Source: Armatimonadota bacterium
Lineage (GTDB): Bacteria > Armatimonadota > HRBIN16
DNA: 64,000 bases
NCBI GenBank assembly: GCA_963677485.1
Contig: OY781964.1
Span: 2,944,001 to 3,008,000 of the forward strand
Direction of reading: 5' to 3'
Shown here in pieces: positions 5,116-48,447 of this stretch. Numbering within the stretch: the first letter of the stretch is position 1; each line of letters begins with the position of its first letter. A program made the position numbers and the translations under genes. A model generated the notes under the pieces. The model saw only the letters and a list, made by a program, of their open reading frames with translations. It had not been told where the DNA came from and ran no database searches.

Positions 5116-6795
5116 ATGGATATGGAAACAATTGGAAAAATCAGTGCAACCGAACGCAATCCGACAACATGTAACGATATATCATTCTGGCTAAAACCAG
5201 GTGTGATGATCAGCCCTTTTGACATTGTTAAGGTACAGCATATGGGGAGAGCAGGTGGTACGAGTAATAGCTATGCCATCATTACGAGCCTGTCGCATAG
5301 TACAGACAGTCCCGCGCATCTTTCTAACTTCGTTTCTTCCGATTTTGGTGATGTGGATGTTATGCCCTTAAACCGACGGTTGGGAATAACCGTTGCTGAA
5401 GCCAATGTTCTATACAATGATGATGACGTTGAATTGCCAATAGAGGACGGACAACCTGTCGAGTGGGCTGACGAAGAGGGCATCCGCGAAGCATTAGGCT
5501 TGACACATATGGAACAGCCCATACCAGCCGGGTACATGTCATGTTCAGGCAGCGGAATTGATGTAAGGGTGGATGTTGATGGGCATTTCCTTCTAGGACC
5601 AGAAGGAGCCCATTTGAACATAAGTGGCATGTCCGGGCTGGCAACTAAGACATCGTATGCTATGTTTCTTTTACAATCGATCCAACAAACTACCGATGAT
5701 ACGGCCATTGTGTTGTTCAATGTGAAGGGGAGTGACCTTCTACACATTGACAAAACAAACGAAAATCTTACCGACTATGATGAGAAAAAGTGGAAGACAT
5801 GTGGGCTCAATCCATGTCCGTTTAAAAACGTAACTTACTATTTGCCATATGGCGATAACCCGAATTCTTATACACAGTCGAAAATGGATTCTAACCATTT
5901 ATCTGAGTGCGTTCAACAAAAAAGTGCTTTCAACTATATAGTTGACCCGACTAATGGACTGCAATCATTATCGATGTTATTTCACGACATAGAAGATCCT
6001 AATGCTACATTCGATAGTATCATTGCAGAATTACAGAATAATCAAAACGGGACCTTCAGTAGCTGGGACGATATATACAGCTATATAAATCAAAAGACTA
6101 GTAAAGGGTCAGGTAGTAGTGAAGCAGGTATACATATAGCTTCGTGGCGTCGGTTTCGGCGTTTAGTGACAACCCGAACATCCAACAGCATATTCACCAA
6201 TAAGCTCCAGAGTTATTCGGAGAAACGAAGGCAATTACCTATCGACGAAATAATCAATCATATACAACCGAATACTGTAACTGTGATAGATATAGAACCT
6301 CTGCCTGACTATTTACAGGCTGTAGTTGTCGGTACCATATTAAAGAAAATATACGATGCAAAAACGTGTAATACTGAGGATTATGCTGAAGATGAAACAC
6401 CTGCAAAGTTAGCTGGTGTGAAGAAAGTGGTTATCTTCGCTGACGAACTTAATAAATATGCACCGCAGCAAGGTGGTAATACGAAAACACTAACGCGAGT
6501 ACTACTTGATGTTGCTGAAAGAGGACGGTCTCTTGGGGTTGTGTTATTTGGTGCTGAACAATTCCGAAGCGGTGTTCACGAACGTGTGATTGGTAACTGT
6601 GGAACCCACGTATTTGGACGGACAAGCAGTGTAGAACTCAATAAATGCGCAGATTATAAGCATATGCCAGATGCATATAGGAATTCACTCTTACGGTTAA
6701 CTAAAGGTACATTGTTGCTACAACATGCGGTATTTAAGACGGGCGTAATTCGTATTCACTTCCCTAAACCTGCATATTATCAACCGAAAAACTAA
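5116..6795 (+). CDS. HerA/DUF87-family ATPase
   Basis: N-terminal HAS-barrel-like region, variant Walker A HLNISGMSGLATKTS, Walker B FADELNKYAP, arginine finger ERGRSLG, AEQF. Confidence 0.85.
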   Translation: MDMETIGKISATERNPTTCNDISFWLKPGVMISPFDIVKVQHMGRAGGTSNSYAIITSLSHSTDSPAHLSNFVSSDFGDVDVMPLNRRLGITVAEANVLYNDDDVELPIEDGQPVEWADEEGIREALGLTHMEQPIPAGYMSCSGSGIDVRVDVDGHFLLGPEGAHLNISGMSGLATKTSYAMFLLQSIQQTTDDTAIVLFNVKGSDLLHIDKTNENLTDYDEKKWKTCGLNPCPFKNVTYYLPYGDNPNSYTQSKMDSNHLSECVQQKSAFNYIVDPTNGLQSLSMLFHDIEDPNATFDSIIAELQNNQNGTFSSWDDIYSYINQKTSKGSGSSEAGIHIASWRRFRRLVTTRTSNSIFTNKLQSYSEKRRQLPIDEIINHIQPNTVTVIDIEPLPDYLQAVVVGTILKKIYDAKTCNTEDYAEDETPAKLAGVKKVVIFADELNKYAPQQGGNTKTLTRVLLDVAERGRSLGVVLFGAEQFRSGVHERVIGNCGTHVFGRTSSVELNKCADYKHMPDAYRNSLLRLTKGTLLLQHAVFKTGVIRIHFPKPAYYQPKN

Positions 6796-7278
6796 GGACA
6801 CGAAATTGGACAAACACCTCAATGTTGGAATCTATATCATTGAAATACTTACCCTGGGTATGTATCCTGATGAGCTAGCTGTAATCCGCGAGTACATACA
6901 AAATTCAACGGACTCGATAACTACTGCTATCGACCAAGGCATCCTTGGTGACAGCGAAGGCCGCGTAACTATCCATATGGATGATACGAAAAGATCAATA
7001 ACCATATCAGATAATGGTACGGGTATAAATCCAGAACTTGCCGTAGATATACTGACTTCTATAGGTGACTCAAATAAAGATGGGGAGAGCACTGCCGGAT
7101 TTAGAGGAATTGGACGGCTAGCGGGTATTGCCTATTGTGACCAGCTATCATTTAAGACCTCAAATCGTGGAAGCAATAAATATATCACGGTTCATTTTGA
7201 CTGTAAGACAATCCGGCATCTTATCAAGAACCATCGTATTACTAAGTCACACATTGATGATATGGTGAATTGTATTAG

Positions 7279-8934
7279 TATCTTACCAACCATATTTTGA
7301 ACACGGTGTATAGAATATTCTGATATTACGCACCACACAAAGCGTTAGGCACAACGATCTGGCGAATAGCAAGTGCTGCCATGATGATACGCTTGCCAAG
7401 TGCAGTGAGGTAGTATTTGTAGCGTTTACCGCATTTTTTAACGAGCCGGAATACTCGGCATCGCTTGATGAAGTATGATATCTGAGAGCTGGACATCTGC
7501 GGTAAGGCTTTTTGAAGCATACGGTTTGTGATCCCGCTGATGCATCCCTCTCCGCGAGCAAGTGCAATGAGACATTCCAAATCCTTCTTGAGGAAAAGGT
7601 TGAATCCTCGATACGAGCGATGATCACGGGTGGTCGAGGTCGCGATTTTGATGATCTGATGTTCACCATCGCTGTTGTCATCAAGGGCGGAAAGAAAGTC
7701 AAGATATCTGTTGTTTGCAGATAATAACAGTTCCCTCAATGGAGGAAGGCTGTAGATGGTCTTTTGCATAGGGGCGTATTTAATCTCAGTCGTCCCATCA
7801 TGATGTTCTACCTCACGGTAGTGTTTAAATTCAGAGACGTCATTCACAGTCGTCTCGATACGCAAGATTATCCCTTGCTTGTCATACATTTTGATAGAAG
7901 CCCATCCCATGTAGTGTTTGATGCGCGTGCCTTGTATGCGGCGATCGAACTTGTAGTCAGTGCCGATCTCAGCGAGTGTTCGCCCATCAAGTTTCTTACC
8001 AAGAAACATCGCGATAGACTCTGGCGTTACCGTATGTATCGCTGTTTTGACTAGATTATCGTAGATGGCTTTGAGGTCTTCGGCGCGTTTGAACACGATG
8101 TCTGTAGCATATTCCACCTGCATTAGCGACCAATGATATGAATTGTCAGCAAGCCGTATCACGGGGCAATACATTCTGGCAAATGCATCCAGCGCATGGT
8201 GCAGCTTATCAGCAGGAAAAGCGTCTGCCAGCCTCTGAGCACAGCTAAAGTCGTCGATTTTTACAAAGGCGTTGTCCAGTGGAGTGAAAACTACTCCCTC
8301 GGATTGAAGGCAATGCGCGAGATAATTGTGTCCATTACAATAGAATTGCAGACGGAAGGGCACCCAGGTCGGAACTCGTAGATAGCACAGTCCAAACTCT
8401 GCATCGATGAAATAGAAGTAGTAATGAAGACACTTGGTCTCCTTGATATTCAGCCGGGTTTTGTGGGTAATCTTGTCGTGCCACGGGGTGTATGCAGGAC
8501 ATTTTTCCAACACTGAGAATATGTGGACGAGACCGGGGTGACACCCTCGACTACTAATGATCTCTTTGATGCGGTCTTCTTTTCGAAATGAAGAGGCACG
8601 GCGTATATACTCAATTTCAATGCTGTTGGTAACGGCAAGGCGTTCCGCATTGGCTTTGATCTCATCTCGTAGAGGTTCGGCAAATTCCTTAGGAAAGTCA
8701 AATAGCCTGATGTTGCGTTGATGAAGATAGATGCCCATTCCGTCGCTATGACACCAGCCTGGGATTGTACCGGTGATAACTATGCGGTCGAAGCATGAAT
8801 ATACCCCAGCTATCTGCTTTGCATAGCGTTCTTGAAGTGATGTCATTCTGGGCAACCTCACGAAAGGGTGTTTGAATGTATATTACGTGGCGAATGCAAT
8901 CATTCCTTTTTTGGTTGCGGCTAAGCCGCCTTAG
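7279..8934 (-). mobile_element. 1,656-bp IS-like element, no TIRs, TTAG junctions, terminal hairpin
   Basis: TTAG at 7275-7278 and 8931-8934; hairpin GCGGC-TAA-GCCGC at 8917-8929; single antisense ORF fills the element; removal restores the host frame. Confidence 0.85.
7326..8846 (-). CDS. Putative transposase with Rep_trans-like motifs and C-terminal winged HTH
   Basis: QVEYATD, IKMYDK and LRIETT motifs; C-terminal wHTH-like segment (...KRYKYYLTALGKR); ATG 8846 with GAGG upstream (ORF track start 8861). Confidence 0.7.
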   Translation of the reverse strand: MTSLQERYAKQIAGVYSCFDRIVITGTIPGWCHSDGMGIYLHQRNIRLFDFPKEFAEPLRDEIKANAERLAVTNSIEIEYIRRASSFRKEDRIKEIISSRGCHPGLVHIFSVLEKCPAYTPWHDKITHKTRLNIKETKCLHYYFYFIDAEFGLCYLRVPTWVPFRLQFYCNGHNYLAHCLQSEGVVFTPLDNAFVKIDDFSCAQRLADAFPADKLHHALDAFARMYCPVIRLADNSYHWSLMQVEYATDIVFKRAEDLKAIYDNLVKTAIHTVTPESIAMFLGKKLDGRTLAEIGTDYKFDRRIQGTRIKHYMGWASIKMYDKQGIILRIETTVNDVSEFKHYREVEHHDGTTEIKYAPMQKTIYSLPPLRELLLSANNRYLDFLSALDDNSDGEHQIIKIATSTTRDHRSYRGFNLFLKKDLECLIALARGEGCISGITNRMLQKALPQMSSSQISYFIKRCRVFRLVKKCGKRYKYYLTALGKRIIMAALAIRQIVVPNALCGA

Positions 8935-9997
8935 GGTTGATGAAGGGAAAGAAGATTCTAATAACCACTATTTTGATGTGGTAATGACTGGTGTTGATAA
9001 TGAAGGCTTTTTCAATCTAGACAGCCTTATGAACTATATCGGAATTGTCGGTCCCGTACCTATGTCGGAGAAATTCGTATATTCCCAAAATTTGCATAGC
9101 GAGTTATTCAACGCATATCATATCAACGAATTCCAAATTGTTCTGAATGGAAATAGCTTTCAACGACAGATATATCGTGAATTCCGGACCGTATATGGGA
9201 TGAAAAGAGGTAAGGCACAAGGCTCCATATACGATATAGATGGTGTACTAGTAAACGTGGTAAGCATTGGTGACCATAGTAAGGTGGCCTATTGGCTTAG
9301 CGAATCCGATTTACGTGGTCAAATTTGTGATCAATATGCCGGACTACGCCTTAGGCACCACAATATCGCCATAGGTGATGTTGACACTTTAGAGACATTA
9401 TGGAAACAAATAATGTTAACTAATCCTTCCGATTCTAGATTTCTCAAGTACTTCATTGGTGATATACACATCATTAGCAATAACGTTGTTCCAAATGCTA
9501 GAAGAGATATGTTTGAAGATAATCAATGTTGGCGGGAGATAGTCGAAATAGCGATTAAACCGCTATTTGAGGACATAACTCGAAAAGTCAGGACTGCATC
9601 AAAAGAGCATGAAGACCCTGAAAAAAAAATAGAGAAGGAAGTGCGTGCGTTAATTGGGCAGGGAAGCGGGTTTTCGTCGCATAGTGCGGTGTTACCTGAC
9701 GACAAGAGGGATTATCTTAAACAAGTTGAGAAAGCAAAAGCAAAAGCAAAAGCTGTTCAAGATGAGAGAGAATTTCCAAACCCACGTATACAGATTGTGG
9801 TTGATGACCTAGACAAAGTTGCATCAACTGTTGCTGAAATAAAGGATCCCTACATCGGGCTAGATCGTAAGCTTCGTAAGGTTGTAGACAGAATTCTTAA
9901 GGCCCTGGGTGGTGTTTTGGATAGTGATAATTACGAACTGGCAAAAGGTGTTATACTTGACGAGTTGACGAACCCTAATGCAAAGGTTGATTTATAA

Positions 9998-11371
9998 TTG
10001 CCGAATATCCTCCTAGTCGAACCTAGTTATAAAACTAAGTTCCCGCCGATCGGTTTACTTCGATTATCTTCATATCATAAAGACAATGGAGATTGTGTTA
10101 GTTTTACTAGAGGCTGCTTACCAGCATATAGAGACCTGTATTGGGACCGTATTTACGTTTCCTCCTTGTTTACATATGAACTGCCGAGAACTGTAAAGAC
10201 AGTACAGTATTACCAACATGCAGTATCCAATCCCGATACCGACATAGTAGTTGGTGGCATCGCGGCAACTCTCATGCCTGACTACATTAAAGACCGGTGT
10301 AGGTGCCGCGTAGTAGTCGGCCCACTCAATCGTCAAGGTCTGATCGACCAACACATTCCCGACATATCGAACTACCGAATAGATTATAGAATCGCAGACG
10401 ATAAACAGTGGAATTATCGTCCTAACGACTGCTATTATTTACGTGCTACCACAGGTTGCATCAGGAAATGCTCGTTCTGTGCTGTCCCTGTAATCGAACC
10501 ATACTTTGGTTTATCCCGTCCGATCAAAGACCAGATTGACGAAGTAAATAACGAATTTGGTAATAAGAAGGATGCGGTATTCATGGACAACAATATACTG
10601 GCAGTCAATGAATTGCCAGATATCATAAGTCAGCTAGTCGACGCCGGATTTAGTACGAAAGCGACATATAATGGTTCACTACGGTCAGTAGACTTCAACC
10701 AAGGATTAGACGCCCGTCTTGTTACCCCACGCATAGCATCATTACTAGGCAAAATATGCTTGAGACCAGCCCGTTTTGCGTATGATAACGAATCTGTGAC
10801 AGATAAATATATCGATGCTATCAGCATGTGTGTAGACCAAGGTATAACCAACTATACGAACTATGTTATGTTCAACTTTCAGGATGATATATATTCCCTA
10901 TACAGACGGCTTGAGCGAAACATCATACTTTCTGCATCAAAAGGTATACGGGTTACCGGGTTTCCAATGAAATATGCTCCCATATATGATGTTGAACGGC
11001 ACTATATAGATGCGAAATGGCATTGGAAATATATCAGAGGTATTCAATGTATTCTAAACGCCACACATGGGATGGTTTCGCCCAATCCATCATTCTTCTA
11101 TCGGGCCTTTGGAAATACAGAAAATGCATTTGAAGAGATCGTATGCATGCCAGAAGGTTACATCATGAGCCGCGTGAAACGTACTGATGACGGTGCCATA
11201 GATGATTGGTTACAGTGTTTCCGCAAGCTATCGCGTGATGACAAAAATTTATATCTACATGCTTTGTCTGAGCTGCATGATGTTAAGGGTGATAGAAGCG
11301 TAATGCTGGATTACCCCCAGTTTGGTGAGCTATGGGTTCATTATGGAACGGATACAAACGTCACAATATAG
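9998..11371 (+). CDS. Radical SAM protein with B12-binding-like N-terminal domain
   Basis: CIRKCSFC (CxxxCxxC), N-terminal ILLVEP...PPIGLLRLSSYHK, VVGGIAATL, MDNN, VDFNQGLDAR; TTG start abuts the upstream stop. Confidence 0.9.
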   Translation: MPNILLVEPSYKTKFPPIGLLRLSSYHKDNGDCVSFTRGCLPAYRDLYWDRIYVSSLFTYELPRTVKTVQYYQHAVSNPDTDIVVGGIAATLMPDYIKDRCRCRVVVGPLNRQGLIDQHIPDISNYRIDYRIADDKQWNYRPNDCYYLRATTGCIRKCSFCAVPVIEPYFGLSRPIKDQIDEVNNEFGNKKDAVFMDNNILAVNELPDIISQLVDAGFSTKATYNGSLRSVDFNQGLDARLVTPRIASLLGKICLRPARFAYDNESVTDKYIDAISMCVDQGITNYTNYVMFNFQDDIYSLYRRLERNIILSASKGIRVTGFPMKYAPIYDVERHYIDAKWHWKYIRGIQCILNATHGMVSPNPSFFYRAFGNTENAFEEIVCMPEGYIMSRVKRTDDGAIDDWLQCFRKLSRDDKNLYLHALSELHDVKGDRSVMLDYPQFGELWVHYGTDTNVTI

Positions 11372-48030: not shown

Positions 48031-48447
48031 ATGGCCCGAAACTATGTTGCAGCATACTACCATATCGTGTGGTCAACGAAGAACCGGGAGCACATGATTA
48101 ACACAGACGAACAGCGGATCAACATGAAGAACCATCTGGCTATGCAGTTCTCAAAAAACCGATGTATGGTTTACGAAATTGGTGTGATGGCCGATCATAT
48201 ACATTCGGTTGTGACCATACCTCCTTCTGAGAGAATTAGCGAAGTGATAGGGCATGTCAAAGGGGAAACGGCCTTTGTGTTTAGCAGAGACGTAACCCTC
48301 GTAAAATGGCAGGAAGGGTATGGCGTCACTACATTCGCGAAAACAGAGTTGCAAAAAGTCTGCGAATACGCAGCACACCAGCAACAACATCATGGCGACA
48401 ATCGGGTTTGGCCGTCCCTTGAGAAGGTAGCCGACGATACCGAATGA
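48031..48447 (+). CDS. tnpA: IS200/IS605-family Y1 HUH transposase, REP-flanked
   Basis: YHIVWSTKNR, DHIH (HUH), VKG, WQEGY, catalytic YxxxQ; GGAGG RBS. Confidence 0.92.
   Translation: MARNYVAAYYHIVWSTKNREHMINTDEQRINMKNHLAMQFSKNRCMVYEIGVMADHIHSVVTIPPSERISEVIGHVKGETAFVFSRDVTLVKWQEGYGVTTFAKTELQKVCEYAAHQQQHHGDNRVWPSLEKVADDTE

Follow-up and report, generated by a model that had tools for sequence, protein, structure and literature searches.

Among the HUH enzymes are replication initiators, relaxases and transposases, and to our knowledge single-strand or rolling-circle transposition in prokaryotes is known only for enzymes of this kind, in the IS200/IS605 and IS91/ISCR elements. For the Rep_trans fold, the available text of PMC13107129 and of a 2017 review describes only replication-initiator and relaxase roles. 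The conserved nic site of MOBT/Rep_trans enzymes is given, in the available part of PMC9371924, as CT'AA beside or inside a GC-rich hairpin. A TBP-fold nuclease joined to a MarR-like winged helix-turn-helix (wHTH) has been demonstrated experimentally to be a rolling-circle initiator in the case of archaeal Rep-Arvir, whose authors, in the available portion of their paper, state that the nuclease-wHTH fusion is not seen in bacterial Rep_trans (PMC13107129).

The locus described here lies in the 5.22-Mb genome of an Armatimonadota bacterium, in a window (the whole stretch of DNA that was analysed, 64,000 nucleotides in length) within which an insertion sequence has split a host gene. Its features, in window coordinates, are as follows.

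6806..7278, plus strand: 5' part of the interrupted host gene, a GHKL-type ATPase (HATPase_c_3; Pfam PF13589, E 3.5e-12)
7275..7278, plus strand: TTAG of the left flank, the target tetranucleotide, which is host DNA outside the element
7279..8934, gene on the minus strand: insertion sequence of 1,656 bp, delimited by copies, flank divergence and contig breaks
7279..7286, plus strand: hairpin-less end TATCTTAC, the reverse complement of the family terminal motif GTAAG-N-G/T-A
7326..8846, minus strand: single ORF from the ORF list, putative transposase of 506 aa, stop codon at 7326-7328
7329..7676, minus strand: residues 391-506, MarR/HxlR-like wHTH
7677..8846, minus strand: residues 1-390, predicted catalytic domain with a TBP-like double β-sheet; D20, Y143, Y145, E245, K319, Y321, R329 and E331 are invariant
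8911..8916, plus strand: conserved box TTGGTT (AACCAA on the ORF strand), just inside the hairpin
8917..8929, no strand assigned: subterminal GC-rich hairpin GCGGC-TAA-GCCGC, from folding and covariation
8931..8934, plus strand: element-borne terminal TTAG (CTAA on the ORF strand), invariant
8935, plus strand: G next to the element (C on the ORF strand), which belongs to the target and is G in 22 of the 22 copies in this genome
8935..9997, plus strand: 3' part of the host gene, aligning to residues 224-557 of an ORF in genome G075 (E 3e-25)

The original prediction had fixed the boundaries of a 1,656-bp element at 7279 and 8934 from the interrupted gene, and both the gene and the copies of the element agree with this placement. 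The 157-aa N-terminal part (6806-7276) and the 353-aa C-terminal part (8936-9994) of the split gene map in order onto, and are collinear with, one uninterrupted 562-aa ORF in G075, at identities of 50% and 25%, respectively, with a junction that fits within one residue. Because the frame of the interrupted gene continues only with G8935 in the flank, this base is host DNA. The genome holds 22 full-length copies, each matching the query at 1-1656 exactly in a DNA search (20 at 100% identity, one with a single mismatch and one at 99%); all are chromosomal, and their flanks diverge precisely at 7279 and 8934. Contigs from public runs break at 7279 and ~8935, and in run X3 the element has a depth of 264 vs 9-15 in the flanks. 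The element is mobile and has been active recently. Its distribution is patchy, with matches in 13 of the 301 genomes sampled from the phylum, in 0 of 17 from the same family and in 0 of 2 from the same genus, and an Alphaproteobacteria MAG (G302) carries at least 11 copies at 99.7-100% identity. Beyond the 22 copies there were no solo ends, MITE-like forms or ORF-less derivatives in the genome itself. A DNA search of 30 relatives with the element and its flanks gave no match outside this genome, so that no empty site can be read at the DNA level; nor did the Logan contigs of public runs contain a circle junction, a joint contig or an empty site, and in runs X6-X8 the element was present without its flanks. 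The orientation of copies relative to flanking ORFs carries no signal (18 same, 20 opposite, with four flanks ambiguous and two too short).

The two ends are asymmetric, one consisting of CTAA (on the ORF strand), a hairpin with compensatory changes and the AACCAA box, and the other of GTAAGNGA with a CTAA flank. Shared ends among homologs, on which the original prediction had staked its reading, are found at both sides of the element in relatives from more than ten bacterial phyla, conserved ends being present in Chloroflexota, Nitrospirota, Acidobacteriota, Planctomycetota, Desulfobacterota, Pseudomonadota, Bacillota, Armatimonadota and Gemmatimonadota. The right end always reads ...GCCGCCTTAG at 8931-8934 (22 of the 22 copies in this genome), and all of the 38 distinct ends compared from other genomes carry the terminal CTAA; in these ends, A22, A23, C24, C25 and A26 of the AACCAA box are invariant and A27 is at least 90% conserved. 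The GCGGC-TAA-GCCGC hairpin claimed just inside one junction lies at 8917-8929, and its pairing is kept across the 38 ends. Alone, the hairpin of this copy does not stand out from shuffled sequences (z of -0.56 and -1.41); across the 38 distinct ends, 93.7% of cells pair, two of the five pairs show a compensatory change (CG to GC or UA), and six cells are changed on both sides vs 0.5 expected, a level reached in 0 of 500 shuffles. The element boundary falls 5 nt beyond the hairpin stem rather than within the loop, and CTAA lies 1 nt outside the stem. At the hairpin-less end, an alignment of 32 sequences shows TAAG and the last A without variation, and RNAalifold predicted no conserved structure in them (0 pairs). 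As had been claimed, no terminal inverted repeats (TIRs) were found, the longest inverted pairs being internal and imperfect.

The left flank of the copies in this genome is TTAG in 17 of 22 cases, ATAG in four and TTAA in one, and the base following the element is G in every copy, with C on the ORF strand in at least 90% of the 38 distinct ends. As TTAGG occurs only 3,684 times on both strands of the 5.22-Mb genome, TTAG at 17 of 22 sites is far beyond chance. The left TTAG varies and the right TTAG is invariant; therefore the left is the target, the right belongs to the element, and there is no duplication. The original observation of TTAG at both junctions holds in this sense, with only the right-hand one being part of the element. 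The proposal that relatives share a tetranucleotide target also stands: in ORF orientation the flank is CTAA at 50 of 59 distinct sites in other genomes, plus one placed one base off, and the remaining flanks are CTAT (three), CTAC (two), CTAG (one), CTGC (one) and TTGC (one, locus L013).

Insertion 3' of a specific tetra- or pentanucleotide, with neither TIRs nor target duplication, marks IS200/IS605 elements and is seen here too. The likeness to that group (IS608 and ISDra2; 'peel and paste') further extends to insertion 3' of a tetra- or pentanucleotide that abuts one end and matches a cleavage tetranucleotide at the other, to a subterminal hairpin and to a tyrosine nuclease, presumed in the present case. 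However, the IS200/IS605 enzyme is a 130-150-aa HUH Y1 protein (PF01797), to which the ORF has no match, and these elements have hairpins at both ends, whereas a hairpin backed by covariation is found here at one end only. Elements of the IS91/ISCR type, as described in the available sources, likewise have asymmetric origin- and terminator-like ends, a tetranucleotide target abutting one end, no duplication, no TIRs and a transposase related to rolling-circle Rep proteins, as would be the Rep-like enzyme of this element; the IS91 enzyme, unlike the present ORF, is an HUH Y2 protein related to the pUB110 Rep family, and the ORF differs in fold and lacks the HUH motif.

The single ORF occupies 92% of the element, and each complete locus examined, across many phyla, pairs it with these ends. 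Its start at the ATG at 8846 gives 506 aa and an alternative GTG at 8861 gives 511 aa; homologs begin at the same Met as the 506-aa form. The non-coding stretches at the element ends measure only 47 and 88 nt, which makes an IS110-type bridge RNA unlikely, and there was no Rfam match in 7100-9100 at E<=1. A promoter scan of the region returned six sites vs 3.3 expected, none of them well placed, and no sigma-70-like promoter between the hairpin and the start codon.

The AlphaFold models of the protein are confident (pLDDT 92.3 and 95.7) and combine a TBP-like crescent double-β-sheet domain with a C-terminal, MarR-like winged helix, the latter formed by residues 391-506 in agreement with the C-terminal wHTH originally claimed. 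In a Foldseek search of the PDB with the catalytic domain, ranks 1-6 were all Rep_trans initiators. The original prediction of a Rep_trans-like protein that is neither HUH nor DDE is supported by this TBP-like model and its six best PDB matches; it had named an RNase H/DDE fold as the outcome that would speak against it, and the model is TBP-like instead. An RNase H-like DDE/DEDD (IS110) transposase was rejected on the confident TBP-like model, the absence of an RNase H-fold among the matches listed and the absence of a Pfam match; an HUH enzyme (Y1 or Y2) was rejected on the absence of an HUH motif and of a Pfam match and on a fold that is TBP-like, not HUH/RRM. MarR/ArsR regulators are small (about 100-150 aa) dimeric wHTH proteins, and this assignment was also set aside, since the wHTH comprises only residues 391-506 and the other 390 residues form a separate conserved domain. 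The BFVD search gave 17 matches at E<=0.001, among them A0A345MNV4, which the available text of PMC13107129 describes as an inovirus Rep_trans protein. The best VIA match of the model is TBP.

Sequence-model searches were largely silent. Pfam returned 0 families at E<=1 for the 506-aa protein, and so no match to PF02486, PF25227 or PF01797; NCBIfam gave no real match, PHROGs nothing real, and ESM Atlas no usable match among named clusters. Sequence searches of the PDB detected the wHTH alone (MarR 3bj6, E 0.012). A PF02486 search of this genome yielded 0 candidates, while true members were found in genome G033 and in the B. subtilis control; the corresponding PF04986 search gave 0 matches but is uninformative, its controls being equally silent.

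The QVEYATD, IKMYDK and LRIETT motifs noted in the original prediction of a ~506-aa protein are located at 243-249, 318-323 and 328-333. Among 67 diverse homologs the residues listed above are invariant, D249 and K323 are at least 90% conserved and A247 is the consensus residue. Equivalent Rep_trans residues were assigned by the order of the motifs, their position on strands and the points at which alignments start. On this basis, Q-x-E245-x-A247-x-D249 parallels RepDE R140-x-D142-x-A144-x-D146, K319-x-Y321-x-K323 parallels R189-x-Y191-x-K193, and R329-x-E331 parallels R212-x-E214. K319-M-Y321-D-K323 lies on β-strand 316-323 of the model, and invariant D20, E245, Y321, K319/K323 and R329-E331 follow the same order as the Rep_trans catalytic motifs. 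If the first strand is ungapped, D20 would align with RepDE D46 and RepSTK1 D9, both of which are metal ligands. The order and strand placement of D20/E245/E331 fit RepDE D46/D142/E214, although Q and E replace the R and D of the Rep_trans motif I, and motif III (YxKxxE) lacks its E. An hhalign comparison with a 34-sequence Rep_trans alignment was statistically weak (probability 2.2%, E 0.022, 35 columns), and the sole aligned stretch was that of the catalytic Tyr and R-x-E, G..S.IKMYDK..LRIE vs G..S.IRIYDK..IRVE. A homodimer prediction for the catalytic domain scored 0.02 and has no bearing either way.

The protein compares with two described groups. With Rep_trans (PF02486)/MOBT enzymes (RepD/RepC of pT181, RepSTK1, NicK of ICEBs1 and RelSt3 of ICESt3) it has in common the TBP-like crescent β-sheet, here by model, a putative catalytic Tyr (Y321) whose β-strand carries the basic-x-Y-x-K pattern, R-x-E and a putative acidic triad in the same order, and an HTH-type DNA-binding domain fused to the nuclease; the nic tetranucleotide CTAA of these enzymes is also the end and target of the element. 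In contrast, no significant sequence-model match connects the protein to them, its catalytic domain is ~390 aa vs ~200-240, motif I is Q-x-E vs R-x-D, known Rep_trans enzymes nick inside the hairpin loop whereas the boundary here is outside the stem, and its biological role would be to transpose a 1.66-kb element present in multiple chromosomal copies, as opposed to plasmid or phage replication and conjugation. Rep-Arvir (DUF7845, PF25227; archaeal pleolipoviruses and plasmids, RepSNJ2), in its available description, has the same architecture of a ~300-400-aa TBP-fold nuclease and a MarR-like wHTH, and acts on a conserved hairpin, of which the element also has one. The distance from motif I to the Tyr is 76 residues in both (207 to 283 in Rep-Arvir, 245 to 321 here). 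Rep-Arvir is, however, archaeal and replicates viruses and plasmids, PF25227 has no match to the protein, and the two are likened by description only.

Taken together, the element is probably a single-strand tyrosine-nuclease transposon, a one-gene IS of a very large unannotated family that combines a non-HUH Rep_trans-like enzyme with a MarR-like wHTH. These results support the original interpretation, within which we infer the catalysis, the cleaved strand and the exact cut. In the proposed mechanism, Y321, flanked on its β-strand by K319 and K323, would attack one DNA strand to form a 5'-phosphotyrosine link, with a metal ion held by D20, E245 and E331, and the same tetranucleotide would be cut at both junctions of one strand. 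The preferred active strand, by a weak preference, would be 5'-NTAG|TATCTTAC...TTGGTT-hairpin-C-TTAG|G-3'; this strand lies on the lagging-strand template, as judged by GC skew, in 15 of 22 copies (one-sided binomial ~0.07, not significant). The process would start at the hairpin-less end, which the winged helix may recognise in duplex form, and would terminate at the hairpin end, recognised when single-stranded, where joining would also take place. The product released would be a single-stranded circle (junction ...TTAG-TATC...), which would then be pasted 3' of NTAG|G in single-stranded target DNA, with the donor strand either copied out by a rolling circle, like IS91, or, like IS608, only excised. 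A cut at CT|AA, as suggested by the MOBT nic site, is disfavoured, as the TTAA flank of a young copy and the TTGC flank of the relative at L013 point to a cut at the tetranucleotide edge.

A possible alternative retains the same enzyme but regards the element as a tiny rolling-circle replicon (a mini-plasmid or satellite), with chromosomal copies integrated at CTAA-like sites by its Rep and a free circle replicating from the CTAA-hairpin origin. The size of 1.6-1.7 kb, with a Rep-like gene and one CTAA-adjacent hairpin, matches minimal rolling-circle plasmids; a CT'AA nic motif beside a GC-rich hairpin is, in the available literature, the Rep_trans/MOBT origin signature, and in contig L033 one 3' end abuts one 5' end through a single CTAA. 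However, the L033 junction joins two different variants and so represents a tandem insertion, not a one-element circle. Further, every copy in this genome is chromosomal, the depth ratio in X3 is about that expected from 22 chromosomal copies, leaving no free-circle excess, the public-run contigs contained no joint contig, and most short contigs stop at the element ends, like collapsed repeats. An origin as a replicon is accordingly considered improbable.

The second alternative concerns novelty rather than mechanism, namely that the finding is correct but the family is already on record, be it in ISfinder, e.g. among the ISNCY orphans, or in literature beyond that searched. At least 7,998 matches to the 506-aa protein were found, and the family comprises at least 6,547 representatives of 50% clusters at E<=0.001, an abundance at which curators may well have met it. 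Against this, NCBIfam carries the models that PGAP uses for naming IS transposases and holds no real match to the protein. The database names of relatives are 'MarR family transcriptional regulator', 'ArsR family transcriptional regulator' or 'hypothetical protein' and never 'transposase', which is the mislabelling as a MarR regulator that had been predicted, and RefSeq and GenBank plasmid records name relatives as ArsR regulators or hypothetical proteins. A search of full-text literature, with most subscription journals outside it, found no description of this IS family or of a Rep_trans-type transposase. The Rep_trans hosts listed in the available text of the 2017 review and of the 2026 Rep-Arvir paper (PMC13107129) are only plasmids, phages and conjugative elements. 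Prior cataloguing is therefore improbable, and as far as Pfam, NCBIfam and the searched literature reach, with ISfinder outside the comparison, the family appears to be undescribed.

Least probable is a passenger or regulatory role for the ORF, as a DNA-binding protein of TBP-like fold with a wHTH, in which case the element ends are mobilised in trans, e.g. by an IS200/IS605 Y1 transposase: such enzymes likewise act beside tetranucleotides and hairpins, three Y1_Tnp genes occur in this genome (one of them within the 64-kb window) and others in four of five other host genomes tested, and TBP, the best VIA match, is itself a non-catalytic DNA binder, but the ORF fills nearly all of the element and keeps the same ends wherever a complete locus was examined, this genome has neither an ORF-less derivative nor a solo end, the hairpin is at one end whereas IS200/IS605 have both, a mere binder would not be expected to keep Tyr, Asp/Glu/Glu, Lys and Arg invariant in a Rep_trans-like order, and G302 holds its at least 11 near-identical copies without a Y1_Tnp match, so that no helper is needed.

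For the family as a whole, it seems fairly likely that the TBP-fold Rep_trans superfamily also acts as a transposase, which would be a new class beside the DDE, DEDD, HUH, serine, tyrosine-recombinase and Cas1 enzymes, and that it drives an IS family which, with members in more than ten phyla and at least 6,500 clusters at 50% identity, would rank among the largest in bacteria to lack annotation. The bacterial nuclease and MarR-wHTH architecture mirrors that of archaeal Rep-Arvir, which hints at an ancient common stock. If this reading is true, the missing third role of the Rep_trans fold would be filled and one more transposase class added, with a compact single-protein, sequence-specific enzyme for cutting and joining single-stranded DNA whose short defined target (NTAG|G plus a 5-bp hairpin) would make its biochemistry directly accessible. 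Thousands of genes now labelled 'MarR/ArsR regulator' or hypothetical would be mobile elements, and their relabelling would matter for genome annotation, for breaks in metagenome assemblies and for estimates of IS load.

The insertion at window positions 7279-8934 is a discrete element of 1,656 bp that splits a gene for a GHKL-type ATPase (HATPase_c_3, E 3.5e-12). The two parts of this ATPase, 157 aa at the N terminus and 353 aa at the C terminus, map in order onto a single uninterrupted ORF of 562 aa in another genome of the same phylum (G075), with 50% identity between N-part residues 7-140 and ORF residues 63-196 and 25% identity between C-part residues 9-341 and ORF residues 224-557. The boundaries given in the original prediction are confirmed, as the junction of the two parts fits the uninterrupted ORF within one residue and the reading frame runs on only if G8935 is host DNA. 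The surrounding gene cluster (5116-11371) resembles a defence or DNA-processing island, and a DNA search of 30 relatives found neither the element nor this cluster.

Features around the insertion (window coordinates)
5116-6795, ORF of 559 aa, no Pfam match
6806-7278 and 8935-9997, interrupted GHKL ATPase (HATPase_c_3)
7279-8934, insertion element
7326-8846, minus strand, ORF of the element (506 aa)
9998-11371, ORF of 457 aa, weak radical-SAM and B12-binding matches below Pfam cut-offs

A DNA search of the single-contig host genome (G000, 5.22 Mb) found 22 places whose matches span exactly query positions 1-1656, 20 of them at 100% identity, one with a single mismatch and one at 99%. When the flanks of these copies were compared in like orientation, similarity ended at the same two nucleotides every time, and the right end was constant (...TTGGTT-GCGGC-TAA-GCCGC-C-TTAG); no terminal inverted repeats were found in the element. 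In the public sequencing run X3, contig depth was 264 for the element versus 9-15 for its flanks, and contigs break at window positions 7279 and about 8935. A one-base deletion at window position 8907, in the T-run beside the TTGGTT box, is carried by three X3 contigs and by metagenome contigs of runs X6 and X7, and is a length polymorphism between copies or strains. Elsewhere in the genome, two copies in the same orientation (G000:3219952-3226302) are separated by 3,039 bp and could carry the DNA between them along as a composite unit.

The tetranucleotide before the left end is TTAG in 17 of the 22 copies, ATAG in four and TTAA in one, and the base directly after the element is G in all 22. 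Copies that do not otherwise differ have different left tetranucleotides, which must therefore be target DNA, and the right-hand TTAG belongs to the element; insertion therefore occurs without target duplication. TTAGG is present 3,684 times on the two strands of G000, and the choice of site is therefore not due to chance.

Word-based searching returned at least 7,998 matches to the protein, most of them on contigs of 1.6-2.4 kb resembling collapsed repeats, and exhaustive searching at E<=0.001 returned 6,547 representatives of 50% clusters (659 of them at E<=1e-30). Relatives are encoded by 255 stretches in reference genomes, with hosts in the Chloroflexota, Nitrospirota, Acidobacteriota, Planctomycetota, Desulfobacterota, Bacillota, Armatimonadota, Gemmatimonadota, the Alpha-, Beta- and Gammaproteobacteria, and others. 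Distribution within the phylum is patchy, with matches in 13 of 301 sampled genomes (G000 included) and in none of the 17 from the same family or the two from the same genus.

Multi-copy sets in a Nitrospirota MAG (six copies), an Alphaproteobacteria MAG (at least 11) and a Gammaproteobacteria MAG (two) allowed the ends to be defined independently of G000. Read in gene orientation, in which the TTAG of the window becomes CTAA and TTGGTT becomes AACCAA, all multi-copy relatives start with x-C|CTAA-(C/G/T)-CCGGC-NNN-GCCGG-AACCAA... and finish with ...GTAAG-N-G-A|CTAA. As the original prediction anticipated, ends and target are common to the homologs. Across 38 distinct hairpin ends (locus L037, whose motif is 1 kb away from the ORF, was excluded), there is no variation in CTAA or AACCA, and the preceding C is kept at >=90%. 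The 5-bp stem is paired in 93.7% of cells, with compensatory changes in two stem pairs, one from C:G to G:C in this window and to U:A in locus L013, the other, at four loci, from C:G to U:A; both sides are altered in six stem cells versus 0.5 expected, a number reached in none of 500 shuffles. The hairpin-less end carries an invariant TAAG..A and no conserved structure (RNAalifold, 0 pairs in 32 sequences). Using a position weight matrix, 59 distinct sites outside G000 scoring >=12 were retained for this end and 13 weaker rows dropped; the flank is CTAA at 50 sites, with one more displaced by a single base, and otherwise CTAT (three), CTAC (two), CTAG, CTGC or TTGC (one each).

Several of these loci show unusual arrangements. 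At L033:120-200, the only site with A as the base before CTAA, a second element of slightly different sequence meets, with its 3' end (...CACTGGTAAGGGA), the 5' end (CTAACCCGG...) of a complete element via a single CTAA, forming a head-to-tail tandem, as though one had landed precisely on the other's end junction. In the relative at L019, the 8-mer CTAAGTAC is repeated in tandem about ten times downstream of the gene (L019:2748-2825), each repeat including the target tetranucleotide and resembling the end motif TAAG..A|CTAA, possibly a microsatellite serving as target or the product of repeated end processing. Two copies on one gammaproteobacterial chromosome (L059 and L060) are 99.3% identical over 2,817 bp, a stretch that takes in 34 nt upstream and at least 1.1 kb beyond the element's 3' end, where the flank is CTAG; this could indicate a larger duplicated unit or read-through beyond the end.

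The 506-aa protein has no Pfam match at E<=1, no real NCBIfam match and no PHROG match. An alignment of 67 full-length homologs (28-77% identity) showed D20, R21, G105, Y143, Y145, G152, P163, N171, N192, E245, F252, K319, Y321, R329 and E331 to be invariant and R157, W239, D249 and K323 to be kept at >=90%. AlphaFold2 modelled the whole protein with pLDDT 92.3 and pTM 0.80, and residues 1-390 alone, which form two β-sheet/helix repeats, with pLDDT 95.7 and pTM 0.92. For these residues, ranks 1 to 6 of a Foldseek search of the PDB were all chains of Rep_trans (PF02486) rolling-circle initiators (E 5.8e-4 to 5.4e-3, probability 0.93-0.99), with low TM-scores (0.23/0.33). Predicted viral structures matching at E<=0.001 numbered 17, giant-virus TBPs mixed with inovirus proteins including A0A345MNV4, a Rep_trans replication initiator (PMC13107129); the Rep_trans fold is itself TBP-like (Carr et al. 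2016, PMC4797284). In RepDE the nucleophile Y191 lies on a β-strand between R189 and K193, metal is bound by D46, D142 and E214, and R140-x-D142-x-A144-x-D146 and R212-x-E214 are conserved (PMC4797284), while a 2017 review lists motifs N' (D), I (RxD), II (T/SxY/ExG), III (YxKxxE) and IV (W/LxRxE) (PMC5714925). The element's protein presents the same order on β-strands: D20, Q-x-E245-x-A247-x-D249, G306-x-R-x-K-H..G314, K319-x-Y321-x-K323 and R329-x-E331. Two VIA structural alignments start at model residue 13 with RepDE 39 and at model residue 12 with RepSTK1 1, which, provided the first strand is ungapped, would place D20 opposite the N' metal ligands D46 (RepDE) and D9 (RepSTK1). A profile-profile comparison with a 34-sequence alignment grown from a true PF02486 member was statistically weak (probability 2.2%, E 0.022), and the single stretch aligned, G..S.IKMYDK..LRIE against G..S.IRIYDK..IRVE, corresponds to motifs II-IV. 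Fold, motif order and local motif similarity thus agree on a predicted Rep_trans likeness, with no sequence model significant. Within the first TBP repeat, a β-strand carries Y143 and Y145 (H-Y-Y-x-Y-F); neither has an equivalent among the motifs listed for Rep_trans (PMC5714925), and one of the two may act as an additional nucleophile.

The data show that the element is mobile, that it has a specific target and conserved ends that differ from each other, and that its protein combines the modelled fold with conserved residues. A Rep-like, metal-dependent tyrosine transesterase would cut the same tetranucleotide at each junction, on one strand only, the two ends would be joined into a single-stranded circle with the donor resealed or copied, and the circle would then undergo strand exchange at an NTAG|G site of a single-stranded target; such cut-join-exchange logic is known for the HUH elements IS608 and IS91. 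The favoured active strand would be 5'-NTAG|TATCTTAC...hairpin-C-TTAG|G-3', because it places the hairpin 5' to the cut, an arrangement shared with relaxase nic sites and the IS608 right end, because this geometry permits hairpin-dependent termination on displaced single strands, and because it is on the lagging-strand template in 15 of 22 copies, a bias that is not significant (one-sided binomial about 0.07; origin near 2.14 Mb and terminus near 4.74 Mb from cumulative GC skew). The cut probably falls at the tetranucleotide edge, since a cut at CT|AA would require changed element-derived bases in the otherwise identical G000 copy flanked by TTAA and in L013, flanked by TTGC; CT|AA is accordingly disfavoured as the exact position. 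The 22 near-identical copies are compatible with copy-out of the donor strand, of which they are no proof.

It is unlikely that the ORF is a passenger whose ends are mobilised in trans by a Y1 transposase: G000 does have three Y1_Tnp genes, but ORF and ends are always found together, G000 has neither solo ends nor ORF-less derivatives, and the Alphaproteobacteria MAG, perhaps incomplete, combines at least 11 near-identical copies with the lack of any Y1_Tnp match. One of the three genes, an ORF of about 161 aa of IS200/IS605-type or REP-associated tyrosine transposase, lies in the window at about 48049-48381 (G000:2992049-2992381). An integrating rolling-circle mini-plasmid is improbable, neither excess depth nor a circle having been seen in public-run contigs, and there is only a slim chance that the family is already catalogued in ISfinder.

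The preferred reading, a Rep_trans-like transposase, has parallels in known systems. MOBT relaxases and Rep_trans origins have a conserved nic site, CT'AA, accompanied by a GC-rich hairpin (PMC9371924), and the element shares CTAA beside a GC-rich hairpin at its invariant end, with CTAA also its target. Archaeal Rep-Arvir initiators combine a TBP-fold nuclease with a MarR-like wHTH, act on a hairpin and require the Tyr, acidic residues and wHTH in mutagenesis; the element's protein has the same architecture, a fusion that the Rep-Arvir authors describe as not seen before in bacterial Rep_trans proteins (PMC13107129). For the Rep_trans fold, the 2017 review and the 2026 Rep-Arvir paper name no hosts beyond plasmids, phages and conjugative elements (PMC5714925, PMC13107129). 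A full-text literature search found no account of this family or of any Rep_trans-type transposase. Single-strand tyrosine-nuclease insertion sequences are already known; what would be new here is such an element with a different, non-HUH enzyme superfamily, and the claim of a non-HUH single-strand transposase is of high interest because it is open to direct bench test.
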